A stretch of DNA of 64,000 bases from the NCBI GenBank assembly GCA_023228325.1, contig JALOBK010000001.1:1596111-1660110 (forward strand). The letters run 5' to 3'. The position numbers and the translations under genes were made by a program. This DNA comes from a bacterium (GTDB lineage: Bacteria; Auribacterota; UBA6266). Positions 1,037 to 41,059 of this stretch are shown here, piece after piece. Under the pieces are notes generated by a model. It made no database searches. It had not been told where the DNA came from and saw only the letters and a list, made by a program, of their open reading frames with translations. Numbering within the stretch: position 1 is the first letter of the stretch; each line of letters starts with the position of its first letter.

Positions 1037-1047
1037 TTGGAGAGAAA

Positions 1048-1989: not shown

Positions 1990-1997
1990 GCGGTAAA

Positions 1998-9222: not shown

Positions 9223-9303
9223 GAAATCTAAATTAATTATTGCTTGATAAACGGTATGATATGGTTTAATTTTATGAAAGAATTATGGAGGTATGGTATA
9301 AAT

Positions 9304-15506: not shown

Positions 15507-15616
15507 AATCGACTATAATTAAGTGATATGTATTCCATTATATGAAAATAGATTAGAGTAAATGTAAGCAAAAAATACATAGAGAAAATGTTTTTATGAA
15601 AAATGAAAGGTTTCTG

Positions 15617-18940: not shown

Positions 18941-18956
18941 AAGTGAGTATAGAATA

Positions 18957-19825: not shown

Positions 19826-21298
19826 ATGAAGATCATTTCAGGTTTATTCAGTAACGATGGGACCTTATCTCAAAAAACAGTAAGAGGTGGGGTGTGGATT
19901 TTTGGTTCTCTAATTTTGAGCAGGATATTATTTTTTGTTAGGACAATTATATTAGCTAAGCTTCTTATGCCTAACGACTTTGGTTTGATGGGAATAGCTG
20001 TTCTTACAATAACGGGATTACAGCTATTCAGTGAAACTGGAATCACATATGCAATAGTACAGAAAAAAAATATTTCAGAGGATGTTCTCAATACTGCTTG
20101 GGTTATGTCAATATTACGCGGAACAGTTCTCTTTATTGTGCTTTTCTCCTTATCTCATATTATTGCAACCTTTTATAATAATCTAAAATTAGAAGCTATG
20201 CTTAGAGTCCTCTCTTTTTCTTTTTTATTTATAGGTTTTCAAAATGTGGGCATTGTGCTTTTTCAAAAAGATTTGAATTTTAAAAAAAGAGCTTTGTTTA
20301 TTACTGCAACAGATTTTGTAAATATAGTTTTAACTGTTGTTTTTGCTTTTGTTTTTAAAAGTGTTTGGGCTATGGTTATAGGACATCTTGTGGGTAACTT
20401 AACAGGATTAATTGTTTCATATATGATTCATCCTTTTAAGCCCTCATTTAAGTTTAATCCTAATATTGCAAAAGAGCTGTTCAATTTTGGTAAACATGTG
20501 TTCGGATCATCTATCATGATTTTTTTTGTTACACAAGGTGATGATGCATTGGTGGGAAAAATACTGGGCTTAGACGCTCTTGGCTTTTATGTATTAGCTT
20601 ATAGTTTATCTAATTCGCCAGCTACTGCGATTACCCATGTTATTTCACAAGTAAGTTTTCCTGCTTATTCGAAAGTACAGGATGATCTCATGAAACTCAG
20701 TAAAGGATATTTAGAAATATTGAAAATCACTTCATTGTTGGCTTTTTGTTTGGCGGGAGGACTTTTTATCCTTGCTCCGGAGTTTATAAGAATAGTTTAT
20801 GGCGATAAATGGCTGCCTATGTTACCTGCAGTATTGGTACTATGTTTTTTAGGGATTTTTCGTTCAATTGGAGCAACTATGGGACCAATTTTTTTCGCCG
20901 TTGGCAAACCCTACATACAGAATAAAATAAAACTCTTCGAATTAATAGTCATGGTTATCATTATATATCCACTAGTAAAATTTCTAGGGATTGTCGGTGC
21001 TGCATTAGCAGGAACAATTGTTTATTTGTTAAGCCTAATATTTCATTATTATAATCTTGTAAATATTTGTGAGAATCTAAAGGTAAAAATTTTAAAAGTT
21101 GTAATGAAACCATTTTTAGCCACATTGTTGATGATTTGGTTTTTATATTTACTGAAGAATTATATTTTTACATGTATAAACCTGCCCAATCTAATAATTA
21201 TTATTGGCTTAGGGATAAGTTTTTATATGACATTTAATTTTCTGTTTGATAAAAGCTTGTTTAAACTATTGAAAACAGTAATTAGTGCTATAACCTAG
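19826..21298 (+). CDS. Polysaccharide flippase (Wzx, MOP superfamily)
   Basis: 490 aa, ~12-14 predicted TM helices; AAGGAG RBS upstream; position after Wzz/kinase genes. Confidence 0.75.
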   Translation: MKIISGLFSNDGTLSQKTVRGGVWIFGSLILSRILFFVRTIILAKLLMPNDFGLMGIAVLTITGLQLFSETGITYAIVQKKNISEDVLNTAWVMSILRGTVLFIVLFSLSHIIATFYNNLKLEAMLRVLSFSFLFIGFQNVGIVLFQKDLNFKKRALFITATDFVNIVLTVVFAFVFKSVWAMVIGHLVGNLTGLIVSYMIHPFKPSFKFNPNIAKELFNFGKHVFGSSIMIFFVTQGDDALVGKILGLDALGFYVLAYSLSNSPATAITHVISQVSFPAYSKVQDDLMKLSKGYLEILKITSLLAFCLAGGLFILAPEFIRIVYGDKWLPMLPAVLVLCFLGIFRSIGATMGPIFFAVGKPYIQNKIKLFELIVMVIIIYPLVKFLGIVGAALAGTIVYLLSLIFHYYNLVNICENLKVKILKVVMKPFLATLLMIWFLYLLKNYIFTCINLPNLIIIIGLGISFYMTFNFLFDKSLFKLLKTVISAIT

Positions 21299-21310
21299 GC
21301 AAAACATAAA

Positions 21311-22696
21311 ATGAAATATAGTTCGGAAGAACATCCGATAATTGAGTTCCCTGCTTTACTAAAAATCTTTCTAGTATTTATTATGTTTTGTTTTGGAATT
21401 AGCCTTTTATTTTTACCTTGTTACATAGTTTTAGCATTATTTTTTGTTTTTTGTATAACTATTGGGATAGTTTTTAATCCCTTTATTGGGGTTATTCTTT
21501 TTTTAACAACTATTTATCTCCATGTTATGGCCTTTGCACCTGTGGAACTTGTTCTAATACATCCTGCTATAATTGCTGGAGGTATTGTGTTTTTTTCTTG
21601 GCTTTTTCATATTATTATTTTTAAAGATTTTAGTTTTCCAAATTCATCTCAGTTTTATTGTGTTGTGGGATTTAGTTTTATTGCTTTTCTCTCTATAATT
21701 TATCATTATAACGATTATAGTAACTTTTTTTTGGTTTTTAACCTTATTAAAATGTTGATTTTGTATTTTCTCATAGTAAATATGATTAAGACCAAAAGAC
21801 AATTTTATATATCATTAAGTTTAATCTTAGTATTGACTTTTAGCACCGCTTTTTATGGTATTTTGCAATATTTGCAAAGTGGGGGTAGCGGGGATATGAG
21901 TAGGGTTGTTGGTTTTGAGGGTAATCCAAATGCTCTTTCTATGAATTCGGTTTTGATTGTTCCCTGTCTTTTAGGTTTTATTTATTATCAATTTTCTCTT
22001 AAGTTAAAGTTGCTGTTTCTTGTTATATTTCTTGTAATTTTATTAGGTATTATTTTTACATTTTCTCGTGCCGGTTTTGTCACTTTAGCAGCAGTCTTTT
22101 CAATGAGTTTATTTGTGTTTAGTAAGGGGCGTGCTAGATTCATTATGGCAACAATCCTGTTTTTGCTTTTTATGGTTTTATTGCCTTTTTTGCCAGAACA
22201 ATATTGGGAACGTATTCAGTCAATAACTGATTTAAAAGAGGCAAGTATTGTGGCCAGGTTAGATAGCTATCGGGTTGGTTTGCAAATGATAAAGGATAAT
22301 CTGTTGATAGGTATTGGTCCAGGGAGATGGCATGCTGAATATGTTCCACATGCTGTTAAATTATTAGGTATTACAGCATATACAAAGTATCCTCACAACG
22401 TATTTATTGAAGTTGCAGCAGAAATAGGTGTTATTGCATTGATATTATATGGATTTTTGCTTTTTTTTAGCTTTAAAGAATTGAATGAAGCGCGTAAAAT
22501 TTTTAAAGAGAAGAAAGAATTTTTGTTGTCAATAATTTCCCAATCATTCTTAATAAGTTTAATAGGTTTTTTAGTTAACACCACCTTTGAAGCTGGTATT
22601 GGGTTAAAAATATTTTGGTTAATCGCTGGACTTGCTGTTGTATTGAAAAAAATAGCAATAAATATAGAACCTAAACCACAGATAAAAAATTCCTGA
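21311..22696 (+). CDS. O-antigen ligase/Wzy-like polysaccharide polymerase family membrane protein
   Basis: 461 aa polytopic membrane protein with large loop containing 'FTFSRAGF' and 'YPHNVFIEVAAEIG', typical of Wzy_C/O-antigen ligase domain. Confidence 0.7.
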   Translation: MKYSSEEHPIIEFPALLKIFLVFIMFCFGISLLFLPCYIVLALFFVFCITIGIVFNPFIGVILFLTTIYLHVMAFAPVELVLIHPAIIAGGIVFFSWLFHIIIFKDFSFPNSSQFYCVVGFSFIAFLSIIYHYNDYSNFFLVFNLIKMLILYFLIVNMIKTKRQFYISLSLILVLTFSTAFYGILQYLQSGGSGDMSRVVGFEGNPNALSMNSVLIVPCLLGFIYYQFSLKLKLLFLVIFLVILLGIIFTFSRAGFVTLAAVFSMSLFVFSKGRARFIMATILFLLFMVLLPFLPEQYWERIQSITDLKEASIVARLDSYRVGLQMIKDNLLIGIGPGRWHAEYVPHAVKLLGITAYTKYPHNVFIEVAAEIGVIALILYGFLLFFSFKELNEARKIFKEKKEFLLSIISQSFLISLIGFLVNTTFEAGIGLKIFWLIAGLAVVLKKIAINIEPKPQIKNS

Positions 22697-22701
22697 AAGA
22701 A

Positions 22702-23856
22702 GTGAATAAGATAAATATAGCACATTTAACATCTCCTCGTAGGGATCAATTATCCGGTTCAGACAAAATAGTTCTGTCTATAATATCGAGATCAGACAAC
22801 AGAAGATTTAAACACATTGTATTTTGTGTGGGGGATCCTAATTGTAAAGACTGCTTATTAACAACAGAAGTAACTAAATTAGGAGGAAGAGTAGAAGTGA
22901 TAAATTTTCGGTGGTGTCTTGATATAAAATCTGTTCTTCTTTTAAGAAGGTTACTAAAGAAATATTCAATTAATATTTTGCAAACCTATGAATATAAAAG
23001 TAATTTTATGGGGTGGCTTGCCACAGTTTTTACCAATGTAAAAAAAATTGCCCGTATTGGTGGGTGGTTGGGTTTTGGGTTGACATTCAAAAATAGCAAA
23101 TTAGATCGGAAGGCATTTGTTTATGAAAAAATAGATTCTTTTGTAAGGCAGAAATTTGACAAAGTCATTGTTATATCAACTAATATTAGGGATAAACTTA
23201 TTGCTCAAAAATGTCCCCTTGAGAAAATAGCATTAATTTATAATGGTATTGATTCCGCTGAATTTTGCTCAGTTGATTCTGCCAAAACCAGGAGAAGTTT
23301 GAATATTAAACCTGGTATGAAAATTATAGGAACAGTGGGTCGTTTGACTTCTGAAAAAGGACATAAATATTTATTACAAGCTTTTACTAATATAATAAAA
23401 AAGTATCCCAAGACTAAAATTATTATTGTTGGTGAAGGTAATCTTAAACAAAAACTAATTAACTATTCGGAAAAATTAGGTATTAAAGATAGAGTGCTTT
23501 TTACTGGATTTGTGCTAGAAGTTGCCAAATACTTATCGATTATGGATGTTTTTGTTTTTCCCTCATTATGGGAGGGTTTTGGAATAGCTTTGATTGAAGC
23601 AATGGCAATGGGTATTCCTATAGTGGCCACTAGAACCGGGGGTATCCCTGATATAATAGAGAATAATATAACTGGTATTCTAGTAGAACCAGGAAATATA
23701 TTAGAGATGCAGGAAGGAATTGGCAAGCTCTTAACCGAAAGAGATGCATCGAGATTAATGGCGGAAAATGCCAAAATAGTGTTTCATAAGAAATTTTTAG
23801 TTGATGAAATGGTGAAGAAATATGAGGAAGTTTATTTGGAACTAATGAATCTATGA
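22702..23856 (+). CDS. Glycosyltransferase family 1 (GT-B, GT4-like)
   Basis: C-terminal 'FPSLWEGFGIALIEAMAMGIPIVATRTGGIPDII' (EX7E-type motif); GTG start. Confidence 0.85.
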   Translation: MNKINIAHLTSPRRDQLSGSDKIVLSIISRSDNRRFKHIVFCVGDPNCKDCLLTTEVTKLGGRVEVINFRWCLDIKSVLLLRRLLKKYSINILQTYEYKSNFMGWLATVFTNVKKIARIGGWLGFGLTFKNSKLDRKAFVYEKIDSFVRQKFDKVIVISTNIRDKLIAQKCPLEKIALIYNGIDSAEFCSVDSAKTRRSLNIKPGMKIIGTVGRLTSEKGHKYLLQAFTNIIKKYPKTKIIIVGEGNLKQKLINYSEKLGIKDRVLFTGFVLEVAKYLSIMDVFVFPSLWEGFGIALIEAMAMGIPIVATRTGGIPDIIENNITGILVEPGNILEMQEGIGKLLTERDASRLMAENAKIVFHKKFLVDEMVKKYEEVYLELMNL

Positions 23857-24965
23857 GTCGAATAAATAAAATACTAGTGATCTGCTTGCAAGGCATCGGG
23901 GATTTGTTGTTGCTTACCCCAGCATTATCTTTGTTGCGGAAAGGATATCCTAAAGCAGAAATTTCTATTTTAATTTCTAATAAAGCAAAAGATGTAGTTC
24001 TGGGTAATCCCAATATTGATGAACTAATAGTTTTTAAGCATGAAAATAAAAATATTTTTAGAATATTTAAATTATTGAGATATTTATCGAGGAAACATTA
24101 CGATTTATCTATTTGTTCTTATCCAACAGGGTTGCGTTCTGCACTTGCAGGGTATATATCTGGAGCAAAAATAAGAATTGGACAGGATGTATGGCCTTTA
24201 AGAAAATTTCCTTTTCTGTTTACAAATAAAATTAAGGTATCTGAAGTTAAACATGCAGTTGAAATGAATTTGGATCTTCTAAAACCGTTGAAATTGAACC
24301 CCGATATAAGTAACAGAAAATTGTTTTTCCCATTAGAAGGTAAACATAAAGAGTTTGTAAAAGAATTAAGGAAAATAAATCATATAGCAGATAGAGATTT
24401 TACCGTGTGTATTCATCCTACAGCATGCGCAGAATCGAGAAGATGGCCTATAGATAGATTTATAGAACTTGCTAATAATTTAGTTGAGATGTTTAATGCA
24501 ACAATAATACTTCTTGTCGCAGCGAATGAAAAAAATATTGCAAATGAAATTGAAAAGGGAGTAAAAAAACCTTTATTGGCAATGGTTGGTGCTCCGTTAA
24601 AAACAGTAGCTGCTATGATAGAAAGTGCTTCTTTATTTATTGGTAATAATTCTGGTCTTATGCATATCGCAACTTCAGTAGAAACTCCTACAATAGGGCT
24701 TTTTGGAGATACCGACCCTCGGATACATTCTCCATATGGTAGAAAATATATAATTGTAAGATCAAATTTGGATTGCAGCCCTTGTTACTATCCGCATCTT
24801 CATGGAACTCTAGAATGTGCGAAATTAGGGCGTGGTGTAGTAAGGCGCAAATTTAAGTGTATGCGAAATAATTACGAATGCATGAAATTAATTTCTGTTG
24901 GAGATGTACTAAAGGCTGTGGAATATCTTATTTCTGGAGAAAATGAGGAATTAAAGAATGAATAA
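23853..24965 (+). CDS. Glycosyltransferase family 9 (heptosyltransferase-like)
   Basis: N-terminus 'ILVICLQGIGDLLLLTPALSLL' and C-terminal 'GNNSGLMHIA' are characteristic of GT9; 4-bp overlap with upstream gene. Confidence 0.8.
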   Translation: MSRINKILVICLQGIGDLLLLTPALSLLRKGYPKAEISILISNKAKDVVLGNPNIDELIVFKHENKNIFRIFKLLRYLSRKHYDLSICSYPTGLRSALAGYISGAKIRIGQDVWPLRKFPFLFTNKIKVSEVKHAVEMNLDLLKPLKLNPDISNRKLFFPLEGKHKEFVKELRKINHIADRDFTVCIHPTACAESRRWPIDRFIELANNLVEMFNATIILLVAANEKNIANEIEKGVKKPLLAMVGAPLKTVAAMIESASLFIGNNSGLMHIATSVETPTIGLFGDTDPRIHSPYGRKYIIVRSNLDCSPCYYPHLHGTLECAKLGRGVVRRKFKCMRNNYECMKLISVGDVLKAVEYLISGENEELKNE

Positions 24966-26664
24966 AAAAATAAAAGTAGCATCTATAATCTTTCAATTTT
25001 TTACTATTCTTATAAGTACATTCTTTTATTGCGATATGATTGAGGCGAAAGAAAAAATTCTTATTGTGCCTACGCCTTTTTCTGTAGAATTAAAAGATTT
25101 TGATGTAGTTTTAGATGAGAATTGGAGCATAGTTGTAGACACTTCTAATGAAAATAATTTATTTTGCGCTAAATATTTAAGCGAAAAATTATCCCCCAAA
25201 AATCTCCACGCTATATCCATTGAAGGTAGCTTAAACCCGCTTTTTGGAAAAAATATTTTTCTCGGATTAACAAATGAGGATTTTATTAAGCAGCTTGTTA
25301 AAGAAAGAAATATAATAATTCCTCCTGAAATCGGGGATGAAGGTTACCTATTAGATATTTCTTCTGATTCTGTTGTTGTTATTGCTAATAAATCCAGAGG
25401 GCTTTTTTATGGAGTTACAAGTTTTCTTCAGTTGATTGCTTTTGAGAATGAACATTTGAAAGTTCCCGGTCTTAAGATTATAGATTATCCCAAACTCAAG
25501 TTAAGAGGAGTTCATATCCTGAACATAGATTATAATAAGATAGAAGATCAAATTGATATGATGGCATCCATGAAAATTAATACTGTAATATTTAGTGATA
25601 AAAATTATTTTAATTTAGAACAGGTAAGTTTTAGAAAACAAATTAAAGAAATTTTTAATTATGCCCGGGAGAGATTTATTGAGCCTGTTCCGGAAGTGGC
25701 CGCTCTTGGATCTGCATATCCTATGTTAGCTCTAAATCCCCATCTTGCTGAAGGAGTGTGGATTACTGATGAACATTATAAATTTGTAAATGATAAAGCC
25801 ATCCCAATAAAAGCAACAGGGCATAATCTCGTTAATGTTATAAGGACAAAGGAAACAGATATAGAAATTACGAATTTAGAAAAGAGTAAAATATATAAAA
25901 AAGATATAGACTATAGAATAATTGATGGTGTTATATCATATCCATACGATATGACCAATCAGCCGACTGAAATAGCAAAAATTTCAAATGGAGATATTAA
26001 AAACGGTGATGAAGTCTTGATAAGTTATGATTACGTTGAAAATAAATGTGCTTCGTATGCACCTTGGAATATTCCATATTGTCTGTCTTCTGAAGAAGCT
26101 CGGCAAGTTATGTTTTCTGCCATTAAAAATACGATTGAATTATTAAATCCTAAATATATTGACTTGGGATATAGCGAAATTGGAGGAATGAATAAGGATA
26201 GTCGTTGCAAAAGGAGAAATTTAACAAACGCAGAATTATTAGCTGATGATATAAATAATATGTATGGATTTATTAAGGGGATAAATCCAGAGATAAAATT
26301 GATGATATGGGATGATATGATTAATCCATGGCATAATGGTGGAGATGAGAATTATCAGGTGAAATATGGTGGTATTCCAGGGAAAACAGCTCCGACTATA
26401 AATATGATTCCCAAAGACATAATTATTATAGTATGGTGGTATAAATCCAATGATGGTTTAGGAAAAATGAAGCAAAGCCCTGCTTATTTTGAGAAAAAAG
26501 GGTTTCAATATTTGGTTTCATCTTGGAAAGACAAAGAAAACATTGAAAGCTGGGTCGAAATTGCAAATAAGAAAAAAGGATGCTTGGGGATGATTGCAAC
26601 ATCTTGGAATGGACTGGATAAAAATTTCAGCAATATAAAATATGCCGCAAGCTTAATGTGGTAA
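24958..26664 (+). CDS. Secreted hypothetical protein, glycoside-hydrolase-family-20-like
   Basis: 568 aa with N-terminal hydrophobic signal; 'KVPGLKIIDYPKLKLRGVHILNIDYNKIEDQIDMMASMKINTVIFSD' resembles the GH20 N-terminal/TIM-barrel junction, but the expected 'HIGGDE' catalytic pair appears as 'EIGGMNKD'. Confidence 0.4.
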   Translation: MNKKIKVASIIFQFFTILISTFFYCDMIEAKEKILIVPTPFSVELKDFDVVLDENWSIVVDTSNENNLFCAKYLSEKLSPKNLHAISIEGSLNPLFGKNIFLGLTNEDFIKQLVKERNIIIPPEIGDEGYLLDISSDSVVVIANKSRGLFYGVTSFLQLIAFENEHLKVPGLKIIDYPKLKLRGVHILNIDYNKIEDQIDMMASMKINTVIFSDKNYFNLEQVSFRKQIKEIFNYARERFIEPVPEVAALGSAYPMLALNPHLAEGVWITDEHYKFVNDKAIPIKATGHNLVNVIRTKETDIEITNLEKSKIYKKDIDYRIIDGVISYPYDMTNQPTEIAKISNGDIKNGDEVLISYDYVENKCASYAPWNIPYCLSSEEARQVMFSAIKNTIELLNPKYIDLGYSEIGGMNKDSRCKRRNLTNAELLADDINNMYGFIKGINPEIKLMIWDDMINPWHNGGDENYQVKYGGIPGKTAPTINMIPKDIIIIVWWYKSNDGLGKMKQSPAYFEKKGFQYLVSSWKDKENIESWVEIANKKKGCLGMIATSWNGLDKNFSNIKYAASLMW

Positions 26665-26704
26665 GCAGAGATTATAAATAGATAGTTTTATGGAGGTGTG
26701 CAAG

Positions 26705-27748
26705 GTGAAAAAAGCGTTAATTACGGGTGTAACCGGTCAAGATGGCTCGTATCTGGCTGAATTCCTTTTGAGTAAAGGTTATGAAGTTCATGGGATTATT
26801 CGTAGGGCAAGCACCTTTAATACAGGGAGGATAGATCATATATATAAAGATGCTCATAATCCTAAAGTAAAAATGTTTCTTTATTATGGAGACCTGTCAA
26901 ATGGAGAGCAAATTTCAAATATTATTTATAATATAGAACCTGACGAAGTATATCATCTGGCAGCTCAAAGCCACGTCCGTGTTAGTTTCGATTTGGCGGA
27001 ATATACTGGAGATGTAACTGCGTTGGGCACAACGAGAATCCTGGAAGCAATAAGAAGAAGTAAAAAAAACATTAAATTTTATCAAGCTTCTAGTAGTGAA
27101 ATGTTTGGGGCAGCTAAATCACCACAAAGTGAAACAACTCCATTTAAACCTCAAAGTCCTTATGCCTGCGCAAAACTTTACGCATATTGGACAGCGAAAA
27201 ATTATTGTGATGGATATAATGTTTTTGCTTCTAATGGGATCTTATTTAATCATGAATCTCCTCGTCGGGGTGAAACCTTTGTTACCCGCAAGATATCAAG
27301 AGCCGTTGCGGCAATTCTAGCAAAGAAGCAGGACTATCTATATTTGGGAAATCTTGATGCCAAACGGGATTGGGGATATGCTCCTGAATATGTGGAAGCA
27401 ATGTATAATATACTTCAGCTTGAAAACCCGGACGATTTTGTTATAGGGTGTGGGGAAGCTCATTCAGTGAAAGAATTTGTGCAAGAAGCATTTTCCTATG
27501 TTGGTTTAGATTGGGAAAAATATGTAAGAATTGATTCAAGGTATTTTCGTCCAACAGAAGTTATAGAGCTTATTGCTGACGCAAGTAAAGCTAAGGAAAA
27601 GATAAAGTGGAATCCTAAAATTACATTTAAAGATTTGGTCAAAATAATGCTTGATTCAGATATGCGGAGAAAGAGACTTAGGCCAATTGGAGAAGGAGAG
27701 CAAATATTAAAAGTTAAATTACCTGATAGGTGGTGGAAGGCAGATTAA
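26705..27748 (+). CDS. gmd: GDP-mannose 4,6-dehydratase
   Basis: '[38 protein letters not shown]' is near-identical to canonical Gmd N-terminus; GTG start 8 nt after GGAGG RBS (ORF-track ATG 26690 lacks RBS). Confidence 0.95.
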
Positions 27749-27749
27749 A

Positions 27750-28691
27750 ATGAATTTTTGGATAAATAAAAAAGTTTTGGTAACAGGTGGTTCTGGTTTT
27801 CTTGGTGGTTACGTTGTAGATAAATTGATAGAAAGAGGCGTAAATCGGGAAAATATAGAGATTCCGAAAATGAAAGATTGTGATTTAAGAGAAAAAGAAA
27901 ATTGTGCAAAGGTTGTAATAGGGAAAGACATTGTAATACATTTAGCTGCTGTTGTTGGAGGAATTGGGGCTAATAGTAAAAATCCGGCAAAATTCTTTTA
28001 TGATAACGCGATTATGGGTATTCAATTAATTCATGAAAGCTGGAGAGCTGGTGTCAAAAAATTTGTTGCGCTTGGAACAATATGTTCTTATCCTAAATAC
28101 ACCCCCGTGCCGTTTAGAGAAGAGAATTTATGGGATGGTTATCCTGAAGAAACCAATGCCCCTTATGGATTGGCAAAGAAAATACAATTAGTACAAACGC
28201 AAGCTTATTGTCGGCAATATGGTTTCAACGCAATCTATTTATTGCCGGTTAATTTGTATGGTCCTAGGGACAATTTTAGTCCTGAAATATCTCATGTAAT
28301 TCCCGCCTTAATAAAAAAGTGTTTTGATGCGATTAGACAGGAGAAGAAAGAAATAATTGTTTGGGGAACAGGAAAGGCGAGCAGAGAGTTTTTATATGTT
28401 GAAGACTGCGCAGAAGCAATTCTTATGGCAGCTGAAAAATATAACAAGCCCGATCCCGTTAATATTGGCGCAGGTTTTGAGATTTCGATCAAAGAACTAG
28501 TCAATTTAATTGCAGAGCTTACTGGGTTTAGAGGCAAGATTATATGGGATGTTAAAAAGCCTGATGGACAACCAAGAAGAATGCTTGACACTTCGAGTGC
28601 TTTTCGTGAGTTTGGATTTAAATCTAATACAAATTTAAGAGAAGGTTTAAAAAAAACAATAGATTGGTATTTTTCTAATCGAAATAATTAG
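27750..28691 (+). CDS. fcl: GDP-L-fucose synthase (GDP-4-keto-6-deoxymannose 3,5-epimerase/4-reductase)
   Basis: 313 aa; '[11 protein letters not shown]', 'NAPYGLAKK' (YxxxK), '[12 protein letters not shown]', 'SHVIPALI', '[12 protein letters not shown]' match Fcl/WcaG pattern; directly follows gmd. Confidence 0.9.
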
Positions 28692-28701
28692 AAGATAAAA
28701 C

Positions 28702-29334
28702 ATGAAAAATGAAATAAAAAAATATCTTATAGAAATACCGTTTTTTTATTTTATCAGGAGAAGTTGTGAAATAATCTCTCTTGTTGGATGGGTATTGAAA
28801 GGCAAGCCTATTCCACCTCCACATTTAGTAAAACAAAGAACACTTAGAAAATATGCGAATAAATTTACGGTAGATACATTAGTTGAGACTGGCACATATC
28901 TGGGCGATATGATATTTGCTATGAGACGCTTATTTAAAACTATTTATTCTATAGAAATGGATGAGCATTTATACAAAAAGGCAAAGAGCAGATTTTTGAA
29001 ATACTCAAACATTTCTATTTTTCATGGTGATACTTCTGATATTCTTCCCCAAATACTAAAAACATTGTATAAGCCGATATTATTTTGGCTTGATGCTCAT
29101 TATTCTGGGGGAATTACAACAAAAGGTTCTTTGGAATATCCTATAATAAAAGAGCTGCAATATATTTTCGGTCATTCAATACGGAATCATGTGATATTGA
29201 TAGATGATGCTCGAATGTTTGATGGGTGTGATGGACGACCCCAAATTAAACACATTATGGAACTTGCTTACAAAAATTATCCAAATTGTATTTTTGAAGT
29301 TGAAAACGATATTATCAGTATTTGCCCCAAATAA
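28702..29334 (+). CDS. Putative class I SAM-dependent methyltransferase (sugar O-methyltransferase-like)
   Basis: Motif-I-like 'TLVETGTYLGDM' and downstream acidic 'FWLDAHYSGG', 'ILIDDARMF'; 210 aa; located after gmd-fcl. Confidence 0.4.
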   Translation: MKNEIKKYLIEIPFFYFIRRSCEIISLVGWVLKGKPIPPPHLVKQRTLRKYANKFTVDTLVETGTYLGDMIFAMRRLFKTIYSIEMDEHLYKKAKSRFLKYSNISIFHGDTSDILPQILKTLYKPILFWLDAHYSGGITTKGSLEYPIIKELQYIFGHSIRNHVILIDDARMFDGCDGRPQIKHIMELAYKNYPNCIFEVENDIISICPK

Positions 29335-29343
29335 GGCACTTAA

Positions 29344-30141
29344 ATGAATGATATTGAAAGAACATTTGCTGTACTTGTTGTGTCTTGTGATAAGTATGCT
29401 GATTTATGGAAACCCTTTTTTCAGTTATTCTGGCAATTCTGGCCCGATTGCCCTACCAATGTTTATCTGCTTACTAATGAGATTTGTACAAGCTTCCCTC
29501 GAGTTAAAAATTTGCTGATTGGGAAAGATATATCCTGGTCAGATAATCTGCGCAAAGCCATACTTGAATTAGATGAAAAATATATATTTTTGTTTATAGA
29601 TGATCTTTTTTTATATGATTTTGTCAATGCAAGTAAGGTATTGGAAATTTTCAAGTGGATTTTAAAATCGAATCCCAATTATATAAGAATGAATCCCACA
29701 CAAAAGCCCGATAGCCCTTATAATGAATTAGTAGGCAGTGTTTCTAAAGGTACAATTTATAGGACCTCTACAGTTTTGTCTGTTTGGAAGAAAAACGTTT
29801 TATTGGATTTGTTGAAACAAGGTGAGAGCGCATGGGATTTCGAAGTTTATGGGTCTGTCAGATCTGATGTATATGAGGGGTTTTACTCTACATGGAGTCA
29901 TTATTTCCCTGTTATCAATTGTGTGGTTAAGGCTAAATGGCAGAGATCTGCAATTAGGAAATTTAAAAGATTAGGAATTAACATTGATTTAACCAAAAGA
30001 GAAAAAATGAATTGCCCCGAAACAATATTGTCTTACTTTAAATATTTACGATCAGGTTTATTGAATATGTTTCCTGCCAGATATAGAAGAAGAATAAAAG
30101 ACATCGTATTAAATGGAAAGTATGACTATAAAATAAAGTGA
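29344..30141 (+). CDS. Hypothetical protein (possible GT-A-like transferase)
   Basis: 265 aa; no recognisable family from sequence alone; contains 'YIFLFIDDLFL' (DD, DxD-like); embedded among glycosyltransferases on the same strand. Confidence 0.5.
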   Translation: MNDIERTFAVLVVSCDKYADLWKPFFQLFWQFWPDCPTNVYLLTNEICTSFPRVKNLLIGKDISWSDNLRKAILELDEKYIFLFIDDLFLYDFVNASKVLEIFKWILKSNPNYIRMNPTQKPDSPYNELVGSVSKGTIYRTSTVLSVWKKNVLLDLLKQGESAWDFEVYGSVRSDVYEGFYSTWSHYFPVINCVVKAKWQRSAIRKFKRLGINIDLTKREKMNCPETILSYFKYLRSGLLNMFPARYRRRIKDIVLNGKYDYKIK

Positions 30142-30172: not shown

Positions 30173-31315
30173 ATGCAAATAGCTTTTTTGATTCTTCTTG
30201 CTTTAATTATTTTTATTTACTTTGGGTATCCTGTTGTTTTAAGTGTTTTAGTTTTTTTGAAAAAGGAGATAATAAAAACAGGAAATATTAGCCCTTCTGT
30301 AACTCTTATAATACCAGCTTATAATGAACAGGCGGTAATACGTCAGAAGATTGAAAATAGTTTTTTTCTTGAATATCCAAAAGAAAAACTTGAAATCATT
30401 CTAGCGTTAGATGGATGTACTGATAAAAGCAAGGATATTGCTTTAAACTATATAAATAAAGGGTTGAAGATTATCGAACGGGAAGAGAGAGGAGGTAAAA
30501 TAGCAGCTTTAAACAAGGCTGTTTCGCAATCAAAGAATGAAATATTGATTTTTAGCGATGCCAATTCTATATATGAAGAGAATGCGATCATAAATTTAGT
30601 AAGAAATTTTGCAGATAAAAAAGTAGGATGTGTGTGCGGTGAACTTAAATATACACTTAAAGATCTTACTTCTGTTGAGGCGGGAGAAAATTTATATTGG
30701 AAATATGAAAAGTTTTTAAAAGAAAAAGAGAGTAAACTTGGTTCGCTGCTGGTTACCAACGGCTCAATCTATGCGATAAAGAGAGAGCTTTATTCGCAGA
30801 TTGATGAAGATTTAGCCGATGATTTTGTTAATCCTATGAGGGTGTATAAACAGGGATTCAAAGTAGTTTACGAGCCGGATGCAATTGCTTATGAAAAGGT
30901 AAGTTCCAGATTTAAAGACCAGTTTGATCAAAAAGTGCGTATTATTTCACAGGGATGGAAGGCAACTTTTAGATTGTGGGACATTATTTTGTCATCGGGC
31001 CCCTTGCGTATATTTGAGTTTTTATTCCATAAATTTCTACGGTGGATAATTCCTTTTTTCCTTATAGCTATGTTTATATCTAACTTATTTCTTGCTAACA
31101 TTAAGTTTTATCAGATATTGCTACTTTCCCAGGTGATATTTTATGTATTTGCCTTTATTGGCTATTTCTCTCAAAAATGGGGAAGTAGGATAAAACTATT
31201 CTATATCCCATTTTACTTCTGCATGGTTAATGCAACAGCTCTGTTGGCGTTATTCAGATATTTAAAGGGAGGGGAAACAAAAGTCTGGGAAAAAGCCCAA
31301 ACATCAAGGAGTTAA
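30173..31315 (+). CDS. Glycosyltransferase family 2 with C-terminal membrane domain
   Basis: 'VTLIIPAYNEQAVI', 'LDGCTDKS', 'IFSDANS', followed by ~4 TM helices; 380 aa. Confidence 0.85.
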   Translation: MQIAFLILLALIIFIYFGYPVVLSVLVFLKKEIIKTGNISPSVTLIIPAYNEQAVIRQKIENSFFLEYPKEKLEIILALDGCTDKSKDIALNYINKGLKIIEREERGGKIAALNKAVSQSKNEILIFSDANSIYEENAIINLVRNFADKKVGCVCGELKYTLKDLTSVEAGENLYWKYEKFLKEKESKLGSLLVTNGSIYAIKRELYSQIDEDLADDFVNPMRVYKQGFKVVYEPDAIAYEKVSSRFKDQFDQKVRIISQGWKATFRLWDIILSSGPLRIFEFLFHKFLRWIIPFFLIAMFISNLFLANIKFYQILLLSQVIFYVFAFIGYFSQKWGSRIKLFYIPFYFCMVNATALLALFRYLKGGETKVWEKAQTSRS

Positions 31316-31317: not shown

Positions 31318-32364
31318 TTGCTTAGCGAGTTACCTATATTTGTATACGTATTTCTGTCCTCAATTTTGGTCTCATTATTGCTGTGTCCATTAGTGATAAA
31401 GTTTGCAGTGAAATATCATTTATTTGATAAGCCCGGACACAGAAAGGTGCACCAGAAAAATATGCCCACAATGGGCGGCATAGCCATGGTGTTTGGTTTT
31501 TTTGCCGCCTTGGCGGTCTGTGAGGTATATTTTCCAAACGCCATCGAAAATTTCTATAGTAAGTTTTGGGGAATGATAATCGCGTCTTTTGTGTTGGTTG
31601 CCCTTGGCATTATCGACGACTTTAAAGGATTAAAGGCAAAGTTTAAAATTTATGTCCAGATACTTGTTGCGATAATACTTATCATTTCGGGTTTCTGCAT
31701 AGAGGAAATAACAAATCCGTTCGGAGATAAAATATCCCTTGGTATTTTCGGTTACATTATTACTGTTTTATGGATAGTGGGAATGATTAATGCCATAAAT
31801 TTTCTTGACGGTTTGGACGGCCTGGCGTGCGGTGTCAGCGGAATTATAGCTTTTTTTCTTTTTTTGTCTTCTTTAAAACAGGGGAATATAACAGCTGCAG
31901 TGATATCCCTTGCGCTTTGCGGCGCTTGTATCGGTTTTTTGCCGTTTAATTTTAACCCGGCGAAAATATTTATGGGCAATACGGGTAGTATGTTTCTAGG
32001 CCTTATCCTTGCGGTAATTGCTATTGCCGGATACAGCAAAACCCAAACCCTGATAACGCTTATAATTCCCGTGATAGCGCTGGGGCTTCCTATTATAGAT
32101 ACAGGTCTTGCTATACTCAGGAGAATAGCCCGTGGCAGGCATATTTTTCACGCCGATAAAGAACATATCCATCACCATATGCTTACCGAAAGGAAATCAC
32201 AGAGAAAAGTCGTCTTATCCATGTATTTCCTGTCATGCTGTTTCGGGATGATTTCCCTCAGCTTTACCGGCTTTAAAGGGATATTTGCCGTTATTGCCTT
32301 GATACTTGTTGTTGCTGTTACTGTTGACTGGATAAGAAAATCAGGATTCCTGAATTTTAGATAA
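31318..32364 (+). CDS. Polyprenyl-phosphate sugar-1-phosphate transferase (WecA/MraY family)
   Basis: 348 aa polytopic membrane protein; 'KPGHRKVHQKNMPTMGGIAMVFG' and 'NAINFLDGLDGLA' motifs of the family; TTG start. Confidence 0.8.
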   Translation: MLSELPIFVYVFLSSILVSLLLCPLVIKFAVKYHLFDKPGHRKVHQKNMPTMGGIAMVFGFFAALAVCEVYFPNAIENFYSKFWGMIIASFVLVALGIIDDFKGLKAKFKIYVQILVAIILIISGFCIEEITNPFGDKISLGIFGYIITVLWIVGMINAINFLDGLDGLACGVSGIIAFFLFLSSLKQGNITAAVISLALCGACIGFLPFNFNPAKIFMGNTGSMFLGLILAVIAIAGYSKTQTLITLIIPVIALGLPIIDTGLAILRRIARGRHIFHADKEHIHHHMLTERKSQRKVVLSMYFLSCCFGMISLSFTGFKGIFAVIALILVVAVTVDWIRKSGFLNFR

Positions 32365-32669: not shown

Positions 32670-33530
32670 ATGTCAATTAAAGAAGCTTTTAATATCTCAA
32701 AATCTGTTTGGTCTATGTCCGTAAAAATGGCCCGTAAATACCCGGTAATATTACTGCCTTTCTTTATCACGGCGATTTGTAATGCGTTGGCCCTTGCGGT
32801 GTTATACTATTTTCCCAGGAAACCGTGGTCATTGTTTTTCGCTTCGCCCATAAGAAATTTTAAGGGTGAGAAGTTCCTTCATTATCCTTCGAATTTTCTT
32901 GTCCTGCCCGAACTTTTTTATTATTTCCAGATTCTTATTATGGCTACGGTAGGCATAATTATGTTCGGAATGGCTGTCAATCTTATTTACCAGGCGAATT
33001 CCGGTAATGTTCTGCCGAGGCCTGCCGGAAGTTTCAATAAATCCGTCAGGCGTTACCTGACGCTTATAGGCATATGGGCTACGCTTTTTGTGTTGAGTTT
33101 TATAATCTTGAAGGTTCCCGCTATTATGCTTGTTAAGTTCCTTGGAGCCAAACCGATAACATTGATATTGCTCAGGATATTCTTTTATTCCGGATTTATT
33201 TTGGTAATAATAATTGAAGCCCTGCTTGTTTATGCTTATCCTGCGGCAATAATAGATAAAAAGAAATATTTTGCGTCTCTGAAAAACAGTTTTGGTTTAT
33301 CTAAACGGGTTTTTATCGCGTCGCTTATTTTAGTCGCGGCGCCGCGCTTACTGGAGGTAGGCTATATTCTTGCAAGGGGTTATATGATTCCTTTTTTTGT
33401 TAAACATGTTCCTGAGTTAAGTGTAGGGGTAATAGCATTTGGGATTGTTTTGGTGATGTTTACCGATTTTTTTGTAATATGCGCTATCACGAATCTTTAT
33501 ATACTTGCAAAAGAAACAAATGGAGAATAA
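32670..33530 (+). CDS. Integral membrane protein, function unknown
   Basis: 286 aa, ~6 predicted TM helices, no recognisable catalytic motif; preceded by ~300 bp noncoding leader. Confidence 0.5.
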   Translation: MSIKEAFNISKSVWSMSVKMARKYPVILLPFFITAICNALALAVLYYFPRKPWSLFFASPIRNFKGEKFLHYPSNFLVLPELFYYFQILIMATVGIIMFGMAVNLIYQANSGNVLPRPAGSFNKSVRRYLTLIGIWATLFVLSFIILKVPAIMLVKFLGAKPITLILLRIFFYSGFILVIIIEALLVYAYPAAIIDKKKYFASLKNSFGLSKRVFIASLILVAAPRLLEVGYILARGYMIPFFVKHVPELSVGVIAFGIVLVMFTDFFVICAITNLYILAKETNGE

Positions 33531-33577: not shown

Positions 33578-33940
33578 ATGATTAAAACTCAAAATTCAAA
33601 ACAATATGACTTGGAAGAAAGAACATTGGAATTTGCAAGAGAAGTTAGAAATTTTGTTAGGGAATTGCCGCAGACTTTAGCTAATATGGAAGATGGAAAG
33701 CAGTTGATAAGATCTTCAGGTTCTGTAGGGGCAAACTACATTGAATCTAATGAATCTTTAAGTAAAAAAGATTTTGCAATGAGAATAAAAATATCCCGTA
33801 AAGAAGCAAAGGAAAGTTGTTATTGGTTAAAGCTTATTAGAGCTAATACTGACAATTTAGAAAAGGAGAGAAAAAGATTAGTTCAGGAAGCACTGGAACT
33901 TACCAAAATATTTGGTTCAATAGTAGAGAAAACAAAATAA
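33578..33940 (+). CDS. Four-helix-bundle protein (family historically annotated as '23S rRNA intervening-sequence protein')
   Basis: 120 aa; 'LEFAREVRNFVRELPQTLANMEDGKQLIRSSGSVGANYIESNESLSKKDFAMRIKISRKEAKESCYWLKL' matches the family pattern. Confidence 0.8.
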   Translation: MIKTQNSKQYDLEERTLEFAREVRNFVRELPQTLANMEDGKQLIRSSGSVGANYIESNESLSKKDFAMRIKISRKEAKESCYWLKLIRANTDNLEKERKRLVQEALELTKIFGSIVEKTK

Positions 33941-34017: not shown

Positions 34018-34890
34018 ATGAAAACAGATAATAAGAAAAGGTATTACGGGAAAATATTATACGGGTTGTTTATAGTGTCCGTGTTGTTTGTGATTGGCTG
34101 CGGCGGCGGAGATTACGAGGCGGAAAAACTTTATTGGAAAGCCAATAAAATGTATGTCCAGCTGCTTAAAGACCCGCAAAACACAAAGCCGCAGGACTAT
34201 GAAAATATTATAGTCGCTTATCAGAAAATTGTTTTTAAATTTCCCCGCTGGGCCTTTGCGCCGAGAGCGCAGTTGACGATAGGGCAGCTTTACGCTATGC
34301 AGAATGATTCCGTGAAGGCAAAGACGGAATACGAAAAAGTTTTGAAACATTTCCCCAATGACCAGAATTCGTGCGCCGGCGCGTTATTCGCTATCGGAAA
34401 AATATATGAGTTTGATAACAAGTGGGATAAGGCCCTTGAAAATTACAACAAAATAGTTTCCGATTATCCCAATACGTATGCGGCATTCCAGGTTCCTCTT
34501 TATATAGCGCAGTATTATAAAACCAAGGGATTGGAACAGAAAGCTCAAAATGCTTATAAAGATGCCATAAGCCGTTATTCAAAGATAATAGAAGAACATC
34601 CCAACACTTTTGCGGCTCTTACGGCGCAGAATTTCACAGTTGCCGCCCTGATTGAACAGCAGAAATGGAATGAGGTTCTCGAAAATCTGAGAAAGCTTGC
34701 CTCTTCATATCCCGGCACTCCTGTTGCCGCCGAGTCATTGAACACAATGGCCGGCATTTATGTTAATCAGTTGAATGAACCTGAAAAAGGCGCTGAAATC
34801 CTGAAAGAACTGCTTGAAAAATTTCCTCAGATAGGAGCCAGGGAATTAATAGAAGAAAAAATTACAACTCTTACATCGGGTAAGAATTGA
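34018..34890 (+). CDS. TPR-repeat lipoprotein (BamD/YbgF-like)
   Basis: Lipobox 'VLFVIGCGGG'; several TPR-like repeats ('AIGKIYEFDNKWDKALENYNKIVSDYPNT'); 290 aa; immediately upstream of exosortase. Confidence 0.65.
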   Translation: MKTDNKKRYYGKILYGLFIVSVLFVIGCGGGDYEAEKLYWKANKMYVQLLKDPQNTKPQDYENIIVAYQKIVFKFPRWAFAPRAQLTIGQLYAMQNDSVKAKTEYEKVLKHFPNDQNSCAGALFAIGKIYEFDNKWDKALENYNKIVSDYPNTYAAFQVPLYIAQYYKTKGLEQKAQNAYKDAISRYSKIIEEHPNTFAALTAQNFTVAALIEQQKWNEVLENLRKLASSYPGTPVAAESLNTMAGIYVNQLNEPEKGAEILKELLEKFPQIGARELIEEKITTLTSGKN

Positions 34891-34900: not shown

Positions 34901-35716
34901 GTGAAAAAATTTCCAATATTTTTATGTGTAATAGGTCTTTTATTTTGTATAATTTATTGGCCCACATTTGTCTGGATGAAAGCAAGGTTTGTTGCTACAG
35001 GCACGTATTATTCTCACGGATTCCTTGTTCCATTTGTTGTAATTTTTCTCGTGTGGAGGAAAAAAAATATATTCAAGGAATCATATGAGTCTAATAAAGT
35101 GGGAATTGTAATAATTTTGGGAAGCCTTCTTATTCATCTTCTTTCATATACATGGAAGATTTTTTTTATATCAGGATTTTCAATGATTTTTACTTTGATA
35201 GGTCTCATACTTTACGTATTTGGAAATAGAATTTTAAAAGAACTTTGGTTTCCCTTATGTTTTTTGGTTTTTATGATACCTTTACCTATATTGGTTATTG
35301 ATAACATAAGTTTTAAGTTAAAGATATTCGTTGCGCAGATAGCTACTTGTATAATAAATATATTAGGAATTCATGCGGAAAGAGAAGGCAGTGAGGTAAT
35401 ACTACAGAATACATCGCTTATGATAGGAAGTCCGTGCAGCGGCTTAAGAAGCCTGATTTCTCTCACAGCGCTTGGTTCTTTGTATGCTTATATTGTTGAC
35501 CTGTCTAATACGAGAAAAATAATCTTATTTGTTTCTTCTATTCCTCTTGCACTTTTATCGAATATAATACGTGTGGTTTTATTGCTTTGGGTTGCCAGGG
35601 GATGGGGTTCCGAAACGGCGACCGGCTGGTTTCATGATTTTTCCGGGTTTCTTGTTTTTATTTTTGCGTTTTTAGGATTAAAGATTGTGGAAAATATGCT
35701 TTCATGGAAAAGTTAG
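34901..35716 (+). CDS. Exosortase (EpsH/Xrt family transpeptidase)
   Basis: 271 aa polytopic membrane protein; conserved Cys 'GSPCSGLRS', Arg 'NIIRVV', N-terminal 'YWPTFVWM'; co-localised with EpsI and PEP-CTERM genes; GTG start. Confidence 0.85.
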   Translation: MKKFPIFLCVIGLLFCIIYWPTFVWMKARFVATGTYYSHGFLVPFVVIFLVWRKKNIFKESYESNKVGIVIILGSLLIHLLSYTWKIFFISGFSMIFTLIGLILYVFGNRILKELWFPLCFLVFMIPLPILVIDNISFKLKIFVAQIATCIINILGIHAEREGSEVILQNTSLMIGSPCSGLRSLISLTALGSLYAYIVDLSNTRKIILFVSSIPLALLSNIIRVVLLLWVARGWGSETATGWFHDFSGFLVFIFAFLGLKIVENMLSWKS

Positions 35717-36336
35717 GAAAGAAACAAATAATTCTTATAGTAATTTTATCGTTGTTTGCAGTCGCGATAATGATTCTTTATTTACGAAAAACTCTGCCTC
35801 CTACAGAGGGAAAAATAATGGATTTTCCTCTGAAAGTCAAGGACTGGCAAGGCGCTAAAGAAGATGTCGATCAAATGGTTGTAGATATACTTGAAACCGA
35901 TAAAGTGCTTTTGACCGTTTTTACAAGCCAACAAAATAAAAAAGTTTGGTTTTCGATTGTATATGGAGAGGACAACAGGTTAAGCTTTCATCCCCCCGAA
36001 AATTGTTATCTTGGCAGTGGACAAACGGAATTGTTATCAAAAGATGAAATTACTTTGGATTTAAACGGAAGAAAACTCGAGGTTAATAAGAGGATTTTTA
36101 ACACTAAAAACACTAAACAATTAGTTTTATATTGGTATATGGCAGGGGATAGGGAAATGGCGAGTTACTACAAACAACAATTCTATCTTGTATTAGATCA
36201 GATAAAGTATAGAAAAAGCAAAGGAGCTCTTATAAGGGTTTCTTCGGTCATTGTAAATGATAATGAAGAGGAAACGTATAAAATCCTCTACGATTTTCTT
36301 ATAGATATCTTACCGGTTTTAAGAGATTACTATTAA
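35704..36336 (+). CDS. EpsI-family exosortase-associated protein
   Basis: 210 aa, N-terminal TM anchor then periplasmic domain; 13-bp overlap with exosortase gene (these two are fused in some genomes). Confidence 0.7.
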   Translation: MEKLGKKQIILIVILSLFAVAIMILYLRKTLPPTEGKIMDFPLKVKDWQGAKEDVDQMVVDILETDKVLLTVFTSQQNKKVWFSIVYGEDNRLSFHPPENCYLGSGQTELLSKDEITLDLNGRKLEVNKRIFNTKNTKQLVLYWYMAGDREMASYYKQQFYLVLDQIKYRKSKGALIRVSSVIVNDNEEETYKILYDFLIDILPVLRDYY

Positions 36337-36437
36337 GCTACTTGACAAATCACAAAAAATAAGGTAAGTATTGACAAATCTTTTTTTTATTCAATAAGTT
36401 GATAGTCAACCATACAAGTATAGAAAAGGAGGAATTC

Positions 36438-37064
36438 ATGTTAAAGAAGCTCTTGTTAGTAGTAACAAGCTTGTTGATTGCCACAAGCGTCAGCGCTTTC
36501 AGCTTTGATTCCGGAACAGAAGGTTGGACGCATGACAGCGGATGGGGAACAGGTATTACGGCTGATCCCGCCTGGTCCGGCTCTATGGATCACACAGGTA
36601 ATGGCGGTGGAGTTATTACAAGCGCGGTAGCATTGCAGGCAGATGGCAGCGGCGGCGCGTTGAATTTAATGTATGCAACGCCTCAGGATTTAAGCTCTTA
36701 TTCATTAATTAAGGGTTATGTCCAGGTTGATACAAACCCTATTCATAATGTGGGCGGTCCGGGTTATGGTATCGGCGCCAGATTGCATATCAAGACAGGT
36801 GCCGGGTGGACAACCTCTATGGGTGACTGGATTAATCTTGAAACAGCGAATACATGGCATGAACTAACGTTGAATTTAGCCGGTATTCCCAACCTAAGTG
36901 ATGTCAGGGCAATCGGAGTTCATATCGGTGATGGCGGAGCATCAACATGGTCGGGCAATTTATTTGTTGATGATATAAATGTTGTTCCTGAACCCGGCAG
37001 TTTGATTATGCTTGGGGCAGGGCTTCTCGGTTTAATCGGTTTTGCGGCAAGAAAAAGAAAATAA
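36438..37064 (+). CDS. PEP-CTERM sorting-domain protein
   Basis: Signal peptide; C-terminus 'VPEPGSLIMLGAGLLGLIGFAARKRK'; AGGAGG RBS; paralogous to 50188..50799 ('FDSGTEGW', 'NLSDVRAIGVHI'). Confidence 0.85.
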   Translation: MLKKLLLVVTSLLIATSVSAFSFDSGTEGWTHDSGWGTGITADPAWSGSMDHTGNGGGVITSAVALQADGSGGALNLMYATPQDLSSYSLIKGYVQVDTNPIHNVGGPGYGIGARLHIKTGAGWTTSMGDWINLETANTWHELTLNLAGIPNLSDVRAIGVHIGDGGASTWSGNLFVDDINVVPEPGSLIMLGAGLLGLIGFAARKRK

Positions 37065-41033: not shown

Positions 41034-41059
41034 TTTTAAATGTGGGGAAAGGGGGAAAC

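Follow-up and report, generated by a model that had tools for sequence, protein, structure and literature searches.

A GDP-fucose module with a candidate GT-A fucosyltransferase and a predicted O-methyltransferase in an exosortase-associated exopolysaccharide operon of an Auribacterota bacterium

Modules for methylated 6-deoxyhexoses are known from the methyl-fucose of the Rhizobium etli O-antigen, from the rhamnose and fucose O-methyltransferases of mycobacterial glycopeptidolipids, and from NoeI, by which the fucose of Nod factors is 2-O-methylated. The clustering of a deoxy-sugar pathway with a transferase and a methyltransferase is the standard organization of O-antigen and exopolysaccharide (EPS) loci. 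Here, a 64,000-nucleotide (nt) stretch of an Auribacterota genome (UBA6266; assembly GCA_023228325.1, contig JALOBK010000001.1, positions 1,596,111 to 1,660,110 of the forward strand), called the window below, was analyzed for a block of four genes, namely, gmd, fcl, and two open reading frames (ORFs) encoding proteins of 210 and 265 amino acids, ORF210 and ORF265. Like the described modules, the block combines a GDP-6-deoxyhexose pathway with a candidate dedicated transferase and a predicted S-adenosylmethionine (SAM)-dependent methyltransferase; the enzymes of the described modules, however, belong to other families (FkbM, TylF-like, glycosyltransferase (GT) families GT2 and GT4, and others). 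The best reading is that a four-gene fucose module lies in the variable, low-GC part of an exosortase/PEP-CTERM-associated Wzx/Wzy EPS operon. As a whole, it was considered reasonably probable that this module makes GDP-L-fucose, that ORF265 transfers the fucose, and that ORF210 O-methylates the glycan. The layout is that of a textbook polysaccharide locus and changes no concept, and ORF210 and ORF265 are best filed as new, uncharacterized members of known enzyme superfamilies. The genes of the block, separated by gaps of 1, 10, and 9 nt, and the key residues of the two ORFs are as follows.

26690-27748, + strand: gmd, GDP-mannose 4,6-dehydratase, 352 amino acids (TIGR01472, PF16363)
27750-28691, + strand: fcl, GDP-L-fucose synthase (GDP-4-keto-6-deoxymannose 3,5-epimerase/4-reductase), 313 amino acids (best NCBIfam and PDB matches)
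28702-29334, + strand: ORF210, predicted class I SAM-dependent, probably cation-dependent O-methyltransferase, 210 amino acids (predicted fold, conserved residues)
28882-28905, + strand: motif I of ORF210, VETGTYLG, putative SAM-binding glycine loop after beta1, behind model strand 59-63
29092-29094, + strand: D131 of ORF210 (in WLDAHYS), end of beta4, invariant putative metal ligand
29203-29208, + strand: D168-D169 of ORF210 (in LIDDA), end of beta5, invariant putative metal ligands
29344-30141, + strand: ORF265, predicted GT-A fold glycosyltransferase and candidate fucosyltransferase, 265 amino acids (predicted fold, conserved residues)
29599-29604, + strand: D86-D87 of ORF265, DxD-equivalent acidic pair (in FLFIDDLF, 29587-29610), between model strands 80-85 and 88-90

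A sequence-only reading of the window had named gmd and fcl followed by a 210-amino-acid protein with a SAM motif I (VETGTYLG) and a 265-amino-acid protein of no recognizable family but with a DD motif (FLFIDDLF). All four were confirmed as + strand ORFs, and both motifs were found at the positions listed above; the gmd start given in that reading, 26705, is 15 nt downstream of the start of the longest gmd ORF. Structure prediction assigned a class I methyltransferase fold to ORF210 and a GT-A fold to ORF265.

The gmd product scored 495.2 bits against TIGR01472, above the equivalog cut-off of 415, and matched PF16363 with an E-value of 3.7e-133. In the case of fcl, the best PDB matches were 8du0 (3e-65) and Escherichia coli GMER, 1e6u (1e-57), and the top 18 matches were all GDP-L-fucose synthases. 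The triad of short-chain dehydrogenases/reductases (SDR; T110, Y139, and K143) and the epimerization pair C112/H182 were conserved in the alignment to 8du0. T110, C112, Y139, K143, and H182 correspond to S107, C109, Y136, K140, and H179 of E. coli GMER. Family membership and conserved catalytic residues thus mark Gmd and Fcl as predicted producers of GDP-beta-L-fucose from GDP-mannose.

For ORF265, no sequence match was obtained in Pfam, NCBIfam, or PDB, including phmmer and family-profile searches of PDB; the sole PDB profile match of the family (E 0.2) was rejected as a spurious repeat match. Of 143 cluster representatives, which were 28-50% identical to the query, 142 had D or E at position 86 and all had D at position 87, so that the FLFIDDLF motif is no chance match. 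D16, N45, D62, R140, E161, E167, and R173 were kept in at least 90% of the same representatives. The predicted model was confident and showed a single alpha/beta/alpha Rossmann-like domain of GT-A topology. GT-A enzymes were the top structural matches by two methods, one of them Foldseek, and the best neighbors were B4GALNT1 and GnT-I; sugar-phosphate nucleotidyltransferases scored at or below 11.8. GT-A enzymes carry the DxD motif in the loop that matches the position of D86-D87 (PMC12595478). With regard to predicted fold and motif, ORF265 was accordingly shown to be a soluble GT-A glycosyltransferase with a DxD-type [D/E]-D motif, whose family is invisible to present profile libraries. This family comprised 229 homologues in a word-indexed search and 4,748 clusters at 50% identity in an exhaustive profile search (1,064 at E <=1e-30), and almost all members were single-domain proteins of 250-300 amino acids.

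The classical fucosyltransferase families GT10, GT11, GT23, GT37, GT65, and GT68 have a GT-B fold (PMC12595478), whereas ORF265 is predicted to be GT-A. GT-A fold fucosyltransferases are described within family GT2, namely, WrtF of Rhizobium tropici, which needs no metal and carries G-A-D where DxD would stand (PMC12595478), and the FucT of Bacteroidetes O-glycosylation, which has a DXD motif (PMC8698959). Unlike WrtF, ORF265 strictly keeps [D/E]-D and is unrecognizable as GT2, and in structure it resembles WrtF no more closely than it does generic GT-A enzymes. Pfam Glycos_transf_2 was found in none of 43 family members at E <=1, and hhalign of the family against two GT2 proteins gave a probability of 0.1-0.2%, that is, no relationship. 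No window protein scanned matched PF01531 or another fucosyltransferase profile. Compared with the inverting GT-A enzymes of GT12 (B4GALNT1), GT13 (GnT-I, POMGNT1), and GT2 (TarP, SpsA, K4CP), to which its identity was 6-13%, ORF265 is a stand-alone bacterial cytoplasmic protein of 265 amino acids with a C-terminal basic helical tail. The literature search returned GT2-type GT-A fucosyltransferases only and no paper describing the ORF210 or ORF265 family. Neither family had a functional name in any source examined, and tblastn matches among PLSDB plasmids were annotated solely as hypothetical proteins.

The association of ORF265 with fucose synthesis was evaluated by comparing the window with four related loci (L172, L173, L174, and L175), some of them from Omnitrophota, to which the closest relatives of the window GT9 belong (51% identity). 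In L174 (Omnitrophica metagenome-assembled genome GCA_023140385.1), the scaffold of secretin, chain-length determinant, ATPase, Wzx, Wzy, GT4, GT9, GH20b protein, GT2, WecA, a protein of no known family (unk286), TPR protein, and exosortase was present at 30-68% identity, but gmd, fcl, ORF210, and ORF265 were all four missing from it. In L172, the order was GT4, GT9, a GH123_N-like gene, a methyltransferase, gmd (69%), fcl (67%), an FkbM methyltransferase, an ORF265 homologue (66%), and GT2; the FkbM enzyme, unrelated to ORF210, fills the ORF210 slot. L173 carried gmd (69%), a DegT gene, fcl (61%), the ORF265 homologue (65%), and GT2, with fcl directly adjoining the ORF265 homologue. On the Wza/Wzz scaffold of L175, gmd (61%), fcl (63%), and the ORF265 homologue (67%) followed one another, the fcl stop overlapping the ORF265 start. 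The unit gmd-fcl-(methyltransferase)-ORF265 was thus complete or wholly absent in the four related loci. An orthologue of the GT2 that stands behind ORF265 in L172 was found at 59% identity in L174, where gmd and fcl are missing; the window GT4 has one of 58% identity there, and the window GT9 has orthologues of approximately 51% identity in L172, L173, and L174. In these loci, ORF265 is thus the glycosyltransferase whose occurrence follows that of the fucose pathway. In a planctomycetotal locus (L012), gmd and fcl were likewise followed by ORF265 and then ORF210. Among ORF265 homologues of at least 58% identity with at least 4 kb of upstream sequence, gmd and fcl were present in the same operon in four of five (five of six with the window), the exception being L001.

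ORF210 was also without a significant Pfam or NCBIfam match, and its methyltransferase matches were weak, partial, and below threshold. No PF01596 match was obtained, PF13578 was found in only 4 of 41 members (best E 0.007), and Methyltransf_3, Methyltransf_24, and TylF were not significant. In the alignment of 41 homologues, E62, G64, G68, E85 (end of beta2), G109, D131, H133, S135, and D168-D169 were invariant; as E62, G64, and G68 belong to this set, VETGTYLG is no chance match either. The AlphaFold2 model was confident and showed the architecture of class I methyltransferases, namely, a Rossmann-like fold of seven strands in which beta1 is followed by the motif I glycine loop and beta2 by an acidic residue. 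In structure comparison, RNA methyltransferases such as Erm and KsgA ranked below other family-3 O-methyltransferases. For fold and conserved residues, ORF210 was therefore shown to be, by prediction, a methyltransferase that has the structure of the COMT/CCoAOMT/TylF group and a putative metal site formed by Asp-Asp-Asp; it is probably metal-dependent, and by profile comparison it lies outside every current profile family. Compared with COMT, CCoAOMT, TrmR/YrrM, and TylF/SpnH-type enzymes, it has a conserved N-terminal extension (W30, G34, P38, P40, and K44), its conserved HYSGGITxKG loop has no counterpart there, and it is without the profile signatures and the catalytic Lys of COMT/TylF-type enzymes.

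A word-indexed search found 5,238 ORF210 homologues (>5,000 clusters), none of them functionally named and hardly any with a Pfam domain. All nine contexts inspected gene by gene were polysaccharide or O-antigen loci, often with other methyltransferases and 6-deoxyhexose genes. The order gmd-fcl-ORF210 homologue was kept in L111, and gmd or fcl adjoined an ORF210 homologue in five further loci (L107, L127, L130, L148, and L160). One homologue, at 8980-9567 of an Azospirillum brasilense plasmid (NZ_CP059454.1, L171), was annotated as hypothetical and was 36% identical over residues 43-173; it lies in an ABC-transporter-type O-antigen locus beside a 516-amino-acid class I methyltransferase and an acyltransferase. 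A. brasilense may offer a cultivable system for the function of this family.

The neighbors of ORF265 were counted in 80 genome loci holding a homologue. Upstream, GT4 (22/68), SDR sugar-nucleotide enzymes (8/68), and DegT aminotransferases (5/68) were found, and downstream, GT2 (9/71) and GT4 (7/71); Wzx genes were also among the neighbors of ORF265 homologues. gmd was present in 18 of the 80 loci, and gmd or fcl directly adjoined the ORF265 homologue in six (L034, L059, L060, L061, L064, and L073). ORF210 and ORF265 homologues occurred together within approximately 1.1 kb in L011, L012, L013, L034, and L065, within approximately 2.5 kb in L092, L096, L097, and L142, and approximately 5-6 kb apart in L037 and L005, with Planctomycetota, Nitrospirota, and Acidobacteriota among the named taxa. 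All inspected homologues of either ORF lay in polysaccharide loci that also held Wzx, Wzy, Wzz, Poly_export, ABC-transporter O-antigen genes, or glycosyltransferases. A distant ORF265 homologue (26% identity) in Parabacteroides distasonis (NZ_OY725761.1, L170) directly followed a four-gene pathway for a CDP-6-deoxyhexose (rfbF-rfbG-reductase-rfbC-like). This sequence is labeled 'plasmid 16' but carries aspS, tilS, rho, and a capsule-type locus, and looks like a chromosomal fragment.

The following course of synthesis is proposed. Gmd and Fcl would convert GDP-mannose to GDP-beta-L-fucose, while the WecA-like enzyme would prime an undecaprenyl-diphosphate-linked repeat unit that GT4, GT9, and GT2 would extend. 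Gene linkage suggests that ORF265 moves L-fucose from GDP-fucose onto this lipid-linked unit in a metal-dependent reaction, which would probably be inverting and give an alpha linkage, as for its structural neighbors. Linkage likewise suggests that ORF210 would O-methylate a hydroxyl group on a sugar of the nascent glycan, in the simplest case on the fucose or beside it, at the cytoplasmic face and before Wzx flipping and Wzy processing. That ORF265 is the fucosyltransferase was judged slightly more likely than not. More tentatively, and with less than an even chance, ORF265 would found an unrecognized GT-A family of metal-dependent GDP-6-deoxyhexose (here L-fucose) transferases and ORF210 an unrecognized family of Mg2+-dependent sugar O-methyltransferases, the pair installing O-methyl-fucose in exosortase-linked EPS. 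The ORF265 family so proposed would span many bacterial phyla, have no Pfam or NCBIfam model, and be distinct from the GT2-type WrtF and from all GT-B fucosyltransferase families.

Several results weigh against these assignments. The best NCBIfam match of fcl, NF047922, reached 293 bits, under its cut-off of 500 (next family, 102 bits). Across the whole ORF265 family, gmd was found within 10 kb in approximately 28% (19 of 69 loci with enough flank) and true fcl was rarer; this figure was not used as evidence alone. L001, with a 61% identical ORF265 homologue, had no gmd or fcl within 8 kb, an FkbM methyltransferase following instead, and L005 had a GT11 fucosyltransferase-type gene alongside its ORF265 homologue. 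Because of these three observations, one donor cannot serve the whole family, and the donor in this locus may be a sugar other than fucose. The window GT2 and its counterpart at that position in L174 share only 22% identity, so that the window GT2 is locus-specific relative to L174 and could be an alternative fucosyltransferase. ORF265 might be a GT-A enzyme for another donor (UDP-hexose or UDP-N-acetylhexosamine (HexNAc), like B4GALNT1 and GnT-I), with fucose added by the membrane GT2, the GT4, or the GT9 and the adjacency to gmd and fcl being mere operon packing. This was judged unlikely, although it deserves the most serious attention among the alternatives to a fucosyltransferase that were weighed for ORF265. 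Close ORF265 orthologues accompany gmd-fcl in four independent loci on three scaffolds (L012, L172/L173, and L175), and in L174 ORF265 is gone together with gmd-fcl, where the GT4 and GT9 orthologues persist. Full-length homologues of the window GT2 were found in three fetched loci only (L023, L051, and L058), none with gmd or fcl. The GT9 had been an attractive candidate for the fucosyltransferase since GT9 donors are also beta-linked, but this was rejected as unlikely because a 51% identical GT9 persists in L174. Nucleotidyltransferase-type enzymes, such as sugar-phosphate cytidylyl- or guanylyltransferases, have the same alpha/beta core as Leloir glycosyltransferases; for ORF265 such an activity is highly improbable, since the protein carries a DxD-type motif and has no glycine-rich loop behind beta1.

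The methyltransferase is subject to similar reservations. In hhalign of the ORF210 family against human COMT, D131/D168/D169 fell on the Mg2+ ligands D141/D169/N170 and H133 on H142, but the probability was 57% (E 1e-4), with a COMT sequence that was entered by hand. The catalytic Lys of COMT (K144) is not kept, as it aligned to the invariant Ser135; because of this replacement, H133 or K141 are candidate bases. ORF210 might instead methylate a non-glycan target, such as rRNA or tRNA (as Erm, KsgA, and TrmR-like enzymes) or a small molecule, or it might act at the nucleotide-sugar stage, on GDP-fucose, and not on the lipid-linked glycan. This was considered improbable: matches to RNA methyltransferases cover residues ~45-124 only, at ~25 bits against cut-offs of 171-525, the nine contexts are all polysaccharide loci, including the RefSeq Azospirillum O-antigen locus, and a non-homologous FkbM methyltransferase takes the same slot in L172. 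The nucleotide sugar may nonetheless be the substrate. In particular, the reading of ORF210 as an RNA methyltransferase of the Erm/KsgA type was rejected, since only the SAM-binding half is matched, the scores are far under the cut-off, and the genomic contexts are unfitting. The preferred role of ORF210 is that of a glycan O-methyltransferase, beside ORF265 as the candidate fucosyltransferase.

Two sizeable families of proteins that current annotation pipelines call hypothetical now gain an enzyme class and proposed substrates that lend themselves to testing. If the proposal is true, ORF265-type proteins would add one more GT-A route by which bacterial glycans are fucosylated or receive a 6-deoxyhexose, and ORF210-type proteins would be widespread small sugar O-methyltransferases. 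In many uncultured phyla, loci for O-antigens, capsules, and EPS would then be better annotated, and candidate enzymes for glycoengineering would be provided.

The block lies in a long + strand operon from ~15.6 to ~37 kb; intergenic gaps of 1-31 nt, all on one strand, were taken as an indication of operon structure. The gene order was obtained from Pfam and NCBIfam scans of the window proteins, and the genes around the block are as follows.

15596-17305, + strand: GspD/PilQ-type secretin with STN domain, first gene of the operon
17306-18940, + strand: XrtA-type chain-length determinant
18912-19790, + strand: tyrosine-autokinase-like ATPase, with the two preceding genes forming the export/co-polymerase genes
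19826-21298, + strand: Wzx flippase
21311-22696, + strand: Wzy_C-domain protein, polymerase or ligase
22702-23856, + strand: GT4-family glycosyltransferase (Pfam Glycos_transf_1)
23853-24965, + strand: GT9-family glycosyltransferase (PF01075, 121.5 bits)
24958-26664, + strand: GH20b-domain protein, 568 amino acids (Pfam)
30173-31315, + strand: membrane GT2, one N-terminal and three C-terminal hydrophobic segments
31318-32364, + strand: WecA/MraY-family polyprenyl-phosphate HexNAc-1-P transferase, the initiator (PF00953, E 5.5e-45), eleven hydrophobic segments
32670-33530, + strand: unk286, six-transmembrane protein of no known family, 286 amino acids, approximately six hydrophobic segments
33578-33940, + strand: 23S-rRNA-IVP-family gene
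34018-34890, + strand: TPR protein
34901-35716, + strand: exosortase, EpsH (TIGR02602)
35704-36336, + strand: EpsI
from 36399: PEP-CTERM proteins, the first at 36399-37064, + strand

The exosortase scored 157 against the TIGR02602 cut-off of 105.55 and EpsI 110 against 42.8, and exosortase, EpsI, PEP-CTERM substrates, chain-length determinant, and tyrosine-kinase-like ATPase were found together, as in an exosortase/PEP-CTERM EPS system. The XrtA-specific models were slightly under cut-off (170 against 208 and 267.5 against 278.85), and the WecA-like initiator reached 143.9 bits with TIGR02380, under its cut-off. The GC content was 0.27-0.37 at 20-33.5 kb, where the glycan-specific genes lie, and approximately 0.41 in the rest of the window. 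Such a dip is usual in the serotype-specific part of polysaccharide loci, and it is consistent with a horizontally exchanged, variable cassette. The glycosyltransferases of the sequence-only reading (its GT1, here GT4, together with GT2 and GT9) and its WecA-like gene were recovered in the Pfam scans, and its prediction of a fucose-containing, possibly O-methylated polysaccharide is supported and sharpened. That reading had also called a heptosyltransferase-type GT9 unusual in an EPS locus. The rarity holds, as GT9 homologues were found in just 1 of 169 other fetched loci, but the window GT9 is part of a conserved scaffold common to three related loci and independent of fucose. It was under the cut-off of every heptosyltransferase equivalog, namely, TIGR02201 (132 against 170), TIGR02195 (124 against 134.6), and TIGR02193 (96 against 185), and no ADP-heptose pathway gene was found among the window proteins scanned.

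The GH20b protein has an N-terminal hydrophobic segment and a weak, partial match to the GH20 catalytic domain, and its start overlaps the GT9 stop by 8 nt. The same slot holds a 759-amino-acid GH20b protein in L174 and a GH123_N-like protein in L172 and L173; the latter were compared with the window protein and were not homologous to it. A glycoside-hydrolase-like partner of GT9 seems to be a conserved requirement. The secretin occupies the slot where a Wza-type polysaccharide exporter is expected, as it does in the Omnitrophota locus L174 (44% identity), and it may be the outer-membrane conduit for the EPS or for the PEP-CTERM system. The unk286 gene, without a Pfam or NCBIfam family, directly follows the WecA-like gene in L174 as well (30% identity). 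The 23S-rRNA-intervening-sequence-family gene, encoding a four-helix bundle, sits between unk286 and the TPR gene and is not at that position in L174; a further copy lies within the polysaccharide locus L175 (6854-7087).

On either side of the operon lie six small PEP-CTERM proteins in all (14632-15291 on the - strand, 36399-37064, 37350-37961, 39457-40071, 40138-40809 on the - strand, and 41042-41692). Two of them contain domains of a carbohydrate-binding-like type: the protein at 36399-37064 has Mann_GBD_bact, and the one at 40138-40809 matches CBM_11 weakly. At 3846-5507 (- strand), a TPR protein with a PilZ domain at its end may be a receptor for cyclic diguanylate (c-di-GMP), and in L174 a GGDEF response regulator stands immediately 5' of the secretin; together, these hint at c-di-GMP control of the EPS system. 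A separate, second sugar-nucleotide set at 152-3104 comprises a UDP-glucose/GDP-mannose dehydrogenase-family protein, an SDR epimerase/dehydratase, and a DegT-family aminotransferase; the N-terminal NAD-binding domain is largely absent from the listed ORF of the first. Between this set and the EPS operon stand the housekeeping genes for UDG, PriA, ThyX, and CarB.

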